In this document: positions 1-340 of the stretch, piece after piece
Numbering within the stretch: position 1 is the stretch's first letter
Layout of the letters: each line of letters begins with the position of its first letter
Origin: Escherichia coli
GTDB taxonomy: Bacteria > Pseudomonadota > Gammaproteobacteria > Enterobacterales > Enterobacteriaceae
Assembly: GCF_003334255.1 (NCBI RefSeq)
Contig: NZ_QOWU01000260.1
DNA: 340 nt
Direction: 5' to 3' (one strand)
Program-made: the position numbers and the translations under genes
The notes under the pieces: generated by a model
Databases searched by the model: none
Seen by the model: the letters and a program-made list of their open reading frames with translations, nothing else
Told to the model about the DNA's origin: nothing

Positions 1-340
1 AGAATTAGCACCTAATGCAACACTGTTTTTATTTGTTACTGTTGCCTTTGCCCCTAACGCAGTACCTTCTGTTGCATCTTTATCAACTTTGGCTCGGTTA
101 CCTGCTGCCGTGCCATATGTAGCCGTGTTATCAACAAATGCAACGCTTCCCAGGGCTGTAGATGCATTTGCATAAGCATATGTTCCCACTCCCAGAGCTG
201 TACTTTGTTTACCGTCCGCAGCAGCCCATGAGCCCACTGCTGTTGACGCTTTTTCTGTAGCCCTAGCACCGTTACCAACAGCTACTGAGAACTCACCAGA
301 GGCTTTCGCATCGCTACCCAGAGAAACCTTCCCATTCTCC
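1..340 (-). CDS. Internal fragment (both ends outside the window) of a large repetitive surface protein; most likely the head-repeat region of a trimeric autotransporter adhesin (YadA-like / Hep_Hag repeats), alternatively a phage tail-fibre-like protein with the same repeat type
   Basis: Minus-strand frame with codons on + strand 337..339 back to 1..3 is open across all 113 codons (hand translated); position 340 belongs to a codon that continues outside the window. The product is about a quarter Ala, with abundant Gly/Thr/Ser and no Met, Cys, His, Pro or Ile. It shows recurring S-[VT]-A-[VL]-G cores at 14-residue spacing (SVAVG, STAVG, STALG x2, GTALG, SVALG), matching the known YadA-like head repeat. 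The other two minus frames contain stops, and + strand frames are interrupted (tag at 6..8, taa at 13..15, taa at 173..175). Gene orientation puts the N-terminus beyond position 340 and the C-terminus beyond position 1. Confidence 0.8.
121..330 (-). repeat. Five tandem, degenerate 42-nt (14-codon) coding repeat units within the CDS
   Basis: In-frame units [14 protein letters not shown] / [14 protein letters not shown] / [14 protein letters not shown] / [14 protein letters not shown] / [14 protein letters not shown] occupy minus-strand codons mapping to + 289..330, 247..288, 205..246, 163..204 and 121..162. The units are similar at protein level but diverged at DNA level, e.g. aca gct ctg gga versus aca gcc ctg gga for T-A-L-G in adjacent units. 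Two further copies of the core (GTALG..., SVALGANS) lie at + 25..66 and + 1..24 after an irregular spacer. Confidence 0.7.

Follow-up and report, generated by a model that had tools for sequence, protein, structure and literature searches.

The irregular segment of the EibD head as a probable β-roll turn with lengthened corners

Introduction

The heads of YadA and related trimeric adhesins share a left-handed parallel β-roll (LPBR) whose layers are 14 residues long and in which the glycine at position 8 is completely conserved (PMC9543794). Rare loop insertions and deletions fall where successive layers meet, after position 14 and before position 1 of the following layer, and the neighboring core Cα atoms are unmoved (PMC9543794, Figure S4). 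The structure of the EibD fragment in PDB 2XQH has been described with a neck, a stalk and a saddle, and consists of three intertwined monomers (PMC7247746). Here we analyze a 340-nucleotide stretch of Escherichia coli DNA (the window; contig NZ_QOWU01000260.1 of assembly GCF_003334255.1), which is part of eibD, a prophage-borne gene of E. coli that encodes a trimeric autotransporter adhesin (type Vc secretion). An earlier note, made from the letters alone, had flagged an 18-residue segment of the encoded protein as an irregular interruption of the 14-residue repeat.

We find, with a probability of roughly 0.93, that this segment is an ordinary β-roll turn of the crystallized EibD head, in which two neighboring turns each have a corner loop that is two residues longer. 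The feature is real but ordinary, and it is already known: the protein, its structure and the occasional longer or shorter corner loops have all been published.

Results

The window within eibD

All 340 nucleotides of the window are identical to nucleotides 1427-1766 of GenBank AF151675.1, which is annotated as eibD of prophage P-EibD from E. coli ECOR-9. The minus-strand frame that begins at plus-strand position 339 is the sole frame open over the entire window. It encodes 113 residues (ending NSVALGANS), which correspond to EibD residues 152-264 and are numbered 1-113 below unless EibD numbering is given. The sequence of residues 7-113 matches, without any difference, chain A of 2XQH, the crystallized immunoglobulin-binding fragment of EibD. 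This crystal structure is reportedly that of Leo et al. 2011 (Structure 19:1021). The full-length product in AF151675.1 contains Pfam YadA_head repeats and a YadA_anchor domain at residues 453-511 (E = 5e-16), and EibD continues beyond the window, after the head, with VTTRDNEVYIG. The window has the characteristics of a YadA-like head (PF05658), with eight layers, a Pfam match and a two-strand β-roll that runs through the flagged segment. The open frame, the nucleotide identity, the identity to 2XQH and the YadA_head matches give one overall feature:

1..339, minus strand: internal part of the eibD reading frame (EibD residues 152-264)

Layer register within the window

The core glycines of the window are located at residues 8, 22, 36, 50, 64, 80, 96 and 110, with spacings of 14, 14, 14, 14, 16, 16 and 14. 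The coordinates assigned to the flagged peptide, 67..120, are exact: it comprises residues 74-91 of the minus-strand frame (EibD 225-242). The peptide had been described as lacking the A-[VL]-G core, but it contains T-A-A-G at residues 77-80, at the place of T-A-L-G in other layers, including the invariant Gly80. The register is laid out as follows, with the basis of each row:

130..339, minus strand: layers 1-5, 14 residues each (residues 1-14, 15-28, 29-42, 43-56 and 57-70); glycine spacing of 14 and model strands
124..129, minus strand: first two-residue corner extension, Asn71-Thr72 (EibD Asn222-Thr223), between layers 5 and 6; Gly64-Gly80 spacing of 16, 7-residue linker and two-column gap in homologues
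82..123, minus strand: layer 6, 14 residues, residues 73-86 (EibD 224-237); window and family scores and model strands
100..111, minus strand: core T-A-A-G, residues 77-80 (EibD 228-231), with Ala at core-facing position 7; conservation of Gly80 and comparison of alleles
76..81, minus strand: second two-residue corner extension, Lys87-Asp88 (EibD Lys238-Asp239), between layers 6 and 7; Gly80-Gly96 spacing of 16, 7-residue linker and two-column gap in homologues
34..75, minus strand: layer 7, residues 89-102; glycine spacing and model
1..33, minus strand: layer 8, residues 103-113, truncated by the window end and the last before the neck; glycine spacing and model

The cores of layers 1-5 are VSLG, VAVG, TAVG, TALG and TALG. 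Layer 7 is a sister of layer 6, with 8 of 14 residues identical. The exact position of the extra residues inside each linker is arbitrary, and Asn71-Thr72 and Lys87-Asp88 are the choices set by the register.

Residues 73-86 score as a layer. Against the other layers of the window, this 14-mer has a mean BLOSUM62 score of 17.8, within the range of the true layers (14.0-20.8), whereas out-of-register 14-mers reach 12.7 at most. None of 20,000 shuffled versions attained 17.8 against all other layers, and 14 of 20,000 attained the observed score when only the five 14-spaced layers were used. A family matrix was derived from 2,884 layers (153 diverse proteins), and it gives the 14-mer 7.8 bits, compared with 6.0 bits for the 99.99th percentile of shuffled sequences and 5.9, 9.4 and 7.7 bits for layers 1, 5 and 7, respectively. 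Glycine occupies the core position in all eight layers of the window, and it is invariant in seven of the eight across an alignment of 25 sequences. Layer-like scores and glycine spacing together indicate that the four extra residues are split two and two over consecutive layers. Read from its sequence, the stretch is best parsed as layer 5, N-T, layer 6, K-D and layer 7, that is, as two consecutive 16-residue layers and not as one 18-residue coreless unit.

Predicted structure

The AlphaFold2 prediction made on the alignment has a predicted local distance difference test (pLDDT) score of 97.8. In the model, each layer comprises two strands, the first of three residues and the second of two, separated by four non-strand residues. 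The longer strands of layers 1-5 are formed by residues 5-7, 19-21, 33-35, 47-49 and 61-63. The flagged layer is modeled in the same manner, with strands at residues 77-79 (T-A-A) and 84-85 (K-V) that are in register and have a pLDDT of about 99. It differs from the other layers of the model only in the linkers at residues 70-76 and 86-92, which contain 7 residues instead of 5. The model superimposes on 2XQH with a root-mean-square deviation (rmsd) of 0.7 Å over 105 columns; because of this agreement, its strand pattern can be taken for that of the crystal structure. Against the BoaA and BpaC heads, the rmsd is 0.7-1.5 Å and the template modeling scores (TM-scores) are 0.89-0.94. The window is thus predicted to form one continuous roll of eight layers.

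In this arrangement, a standard 14-residue layer consists of a longer strand of the form x-A-hydrophobic-G, a short second strand and a five-residue corner linker. Layers 6 and 7 have 16 residues because the linker leading into each is 7 residues long. In layer 6, Ala replaces Leu, Val or Ile at core-facing position 7, which gives T-A-A-G. The register of the roll is thus kept across the segment, where the four added residues do no more than lengthen two surface corners.

Comparison across the Eib family

Sixteen Eib-family genes were compared, comprising 12 from E. coli chromosomes together with those of EibC, EibD, EibE and phage PhiR12_3. The 16,16 spacing is kept at the same place in all 16 genes. 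The column that reads TAAG in EibD has TAIG in eight of these genes and TAVG in two, so the Ala of EibD is a small-residue variant of a core position. In the MAFFT alignment, whose 25 sequences extend down to approximately 32% identity, Gly80 is invariant (25/25) and Ala78 is present in at least 90% of the sequences. In distant homologues whose layers all have 14 residues, a gap of two columns occurs at each of the two corners flanking layer 6. In the alignment and the model, the segment is essentially a normal, conserved repeat variant of the β-roll, with these two corner gaps as the remaining difference from distant homologues.

The segment is also not especially variable. Among 14 distinct Eib heads, its mean column entropy is 0.44 bits, compared with 0.55 bits elsewhere in the head, and a reading of the segment as a hypervariable loop is unsupported. 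No insertions or deletions were found in the segment among these heads beyond duplications of whole layers. Residues Lys87 and Asp88 vary only between K and E and between D and N, respectively. The most variable column of the region is residue 71, at which N, G, Y, S and P occur (1.87 bits).

A more divergent Eib-like head at locus L011 (NZ_CP053731.1, residues ~187-255) has spacings of 15, 16, 16 and 14. It contains a proline in one corner (SVRPN) and has the cores TSVG, TAVG and VAIG, and the 16-residue run before the last layer is kept despite the change in sequence. A recurrence of the core at half the period was observed in the heads of L001, L004, L005 and L015, in which TSVG is followed by AALG after 7 residues and by VALG after 7 more (for example, EibE residues 180-194). 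A crude scan of the wider family gave 440 spacings of 7, and the two halves of a layer are alike.

Layer spacing across trimeric adhesins

A word-indexed protein search gave only four partial E. coli fragments, and an exhaustive phmmer search of representatives was used instead. This search yielded 2,600 representatives at E ≤ 0.001, and 149 retrieved proteins of at least 200 residues were analyzed. A total of 2,815 adjacent-layer spacings were called with our own position-specific scoring matrix at a 5-bit threshold, with some layers possibly mis-called. Spacings of 14 residues account for 86.3% of these, of 13 for 3.5%, of 15 for 3.0% and of 16 for 3.5% (98 spacings). At least one spacing of 16 is present in 40 of the 149 proteins, and 19 consecutive 16,16 pairs were found. 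The dipeptides inserted at spacings of 16 are polar and turn-like (AN, EN, AG, KD and others); KD accounts for 5 of 98 and is among the commoner ones. Ala is found at position 7 in 2.4% of the family layers.

Duplication and mosaicism of Eib heads

The head of PhiR12_3 (locus L016, PV340552.1) contains a perfect 48-bp tandem duplication at 1748-1847 (2.1 copies, 100% match). It adds exactly one 16-residue layer, AKVDKNATEGVALGAK, which is present twice, and the spacing becomes 16,16,16 compared with 16,16 in EibD, EibC and EibE. Locus L007 carries a 48-bp duplication at 1748-1851 whose copies match at 83%, and it also has a third 16-residue layer. The duplication in PhiR12_3 shows the 16-residue layer behaving as a unit. 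Within eibD itself, a recent DNA duplication is ruled out: Tandem Repeats Finder detected no tandem DNA repeat in the window, and its two 16-residue units agree at only 23-24 of 48 nucleotides.

Depending on the genome, Megablast alignments with the window start at query nucleotide 1, 56-59 or 96 (counted on the reverse complement; plus-strand 230-285 and about plus-strand 245). The mosaic pattern was observed at loci L003, L006, L008-L010 and L012. L003 is 98.9% identical from query nucleotide 56 onward, yet has an unrelated first layer and N-terminal domain. Eib heads are thus mosaic, and these alignments suggest recombination break points inside the β-roll.

Genomic setting

Matches to the head fragment were found in 31 of 5,426 complete E. 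coli genomes, and all are chromosomal and in a prophage context. None of the matches among the 5,426 genomes has the exact eibD sequence of ECOR-9, and full-length identity reaches 94.4% at most. The relatives in E. coli genomes are located in prophages, where tail-fiber and DUF4376 genes precede them and a conserved gene of approximately 157 residues follows. Stem-loops were annotated by the depositors directly upstream and downstream of eibD (AF151675.1 844-872 and 2535-2563), and likewise at eibC and eibE. Since they flank the eib genes, eib constitutes a bracketed cassette between ORF-191 (DUF4376) and ORF-156.

On the plus strand of the window, frame 2 contains antisense open stretches at nucleotides 2-172 (57 codons) and 176-340 (55 codons), with one stop between them. 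These plus-strand stretches are broken by stops and were judged to be an artifact of a coding strand rich in Ala, Gly and Thr. In an Rfam scan, neither strand of the window gave a match at E ≤ 1.

Discussion

The segment is one rung of the trimeric β-roll head scaffold, and its role would be structural. Its K-V-D-K-D stretch is probably a short strand followed by a solvent-exposed turn rather than a separate binding module. Several points weigh against this assignment. Since 2XQH predates the training data of AlphaFold, the model cannot count as independent of it, and the head was modeled as a monomer; the calling of layers in the family survey is subject to the errors stated above. Pfam YadA_head matches residues 5-25, 27-52, 41-65 and 90-113 (four matches, E = 2e-5 to 3.4e-4), and no match was found over residues 66-89. 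Deletion of the four extra residues in silico gave only a weak extra Pfam match (E = 0.37, 11.7 bits). The missing match and the weak match after deletion together mark layer 6 as divergent, with Gly at position 4 and Ala at position 7. The claim that the 14-residue register is interrupted holds for the four residues in excess and for the Pfam gap; it does not hold for a single 18-residue unit, since the excess is divided between two 16-residue layers.

The Pfam gap, the four residues beyond the 14-residue period and the charge of K-V-D-K-D would also be expected from a single coreless insert of 18 residues that loops out of the β-roll as a surface excursion. This is very improbable given that the T-A-A-G core with its invariant glycine is present, that the layer obtains a canonical score, that the extra residues are divided two and two, and that residues 77-79 and 84-85 are in-register strands in a model 0.7 Å from the crystal structure. 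What survives of the proposed loop insertion is the pair of two-residue gaps relative to distant homologues and the lengthened linkers; a loop outside the β-roll is not predicted. The segment had also been regarded as a possible junction between two head subdomains, that is, between two rolls of different origin. The mosaicism of the E. coli homologues is in keeping with such a junction, as is the difference between the last three layers (A-T-x-G-T-A-x-G) and the first five (x-x-x-S-T-A-x-G). However, the break points at query nucleotides 56-59 and 96 (residues 19-20 and 32) are far upstream of the segment, which spans query nucleotides 221-274, and all of the Eib-family genes compared contain the 16,16 block, whatever N-terminal part adjoins it. 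The model and its match to the crystal structure point to one continuous roll of eight layers, and a junction at this position is scarcely credible.

The extended charged corners (D-N-T and D-K-D) could, besides their structural role, form a specific surface patch for head-head self-association, for a host ligand or as a diversifying epitope. The extra residues are predicted to lie in surface corners, and variability in the region peaks at residue 71, where five different amino acids occur. Trimeric adhesin heads mediate autoaggregation (PMC7568254), and EibG no longer forms chains once its entire head is deleted (PMC12511318). Deletion of the EibG β-roll alone, however, leaves chain formation in place (PMC12511318). 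Two regions of the EibD stalk, and not the head, account for IgA and IgG binding (PMC7247746), which argues against the suggested role in ligand specificity. The suggested site of antigenic variation is likewise not borne out, as the segment varies less than the remainder of the head and is not a variation hot spot, and the substitutions at Lys87 and Asp88 are restricted. A specific patch is thus unlikely, and the assignment of the segment as an ordinary β-roll turn with two lengthened corners is preferred.

Eib alleles that differ by whole 16-residue layers through 48-bp tandem duplication illustrate a simple route to variation in head length. As a tentative extension, to which we give little weight, the 16-residue layer, extended polar corner included, might be a distinct mobile block of Eib heads, whose copy number is changed by 48-bp duplication and which tunes the head length and a charged stripe governing which Eib-bearing cells aggregate together. 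For the annotation of such proteins, a layer with an Ala core and a corner longer by two residues goes undetected by both a simple A-[VL]-G motif and the YadA_head profile of Pfam. The spacing of the invariant glycines is a reliable ruler for parsing the repeats of YadA-like heads.

Comparison with known heads

EibD of the ECOR-9 prophage P-EibD is the same gene as that in the window, and the window is a fragment of it without any difference. EibC, EibE and the other prophage Eib-family proteins (L001-L012 and L014-L016) resemble EibD in that 14-residue layers are followed by spacings of 16, 16 and 14 before the neck. Like eibD, these relatives are located between the DUF4376/ORF-191 gene and the ORF-156 gene, beside tail-fiber genes. 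Unlike in EibD, the core of their layer 6 is TAIG or TAVG, and N-terminal domains are swapped between alleles. L007 and PhiR12_3 differ further from EibD by their third 16-residue layer.

The heads of YadA (1P9H), BoaA (3S6L), BpaC (7O23), AtaA (3WP8) and UspA1 (3PR7/3NTN) adopt the same left-handed parallel β-roll as EibD. These YadA-like head (Ylhead) proteins share with EibD the 14-residue layer in which positions 6, 7 and 8 are occupied by Ala, a hydrophobic residue and Gly, respectively, with Foldseek TM-scores of 0.71-0.94. BpaC differs from EibD in having almost purely 14-residue layers, and UspA1 in having mostly 15-residue layers with an extra glycine. Compared with both, EibD is distinguished by two adjacent 16-residue layers and by Ala at one core position.
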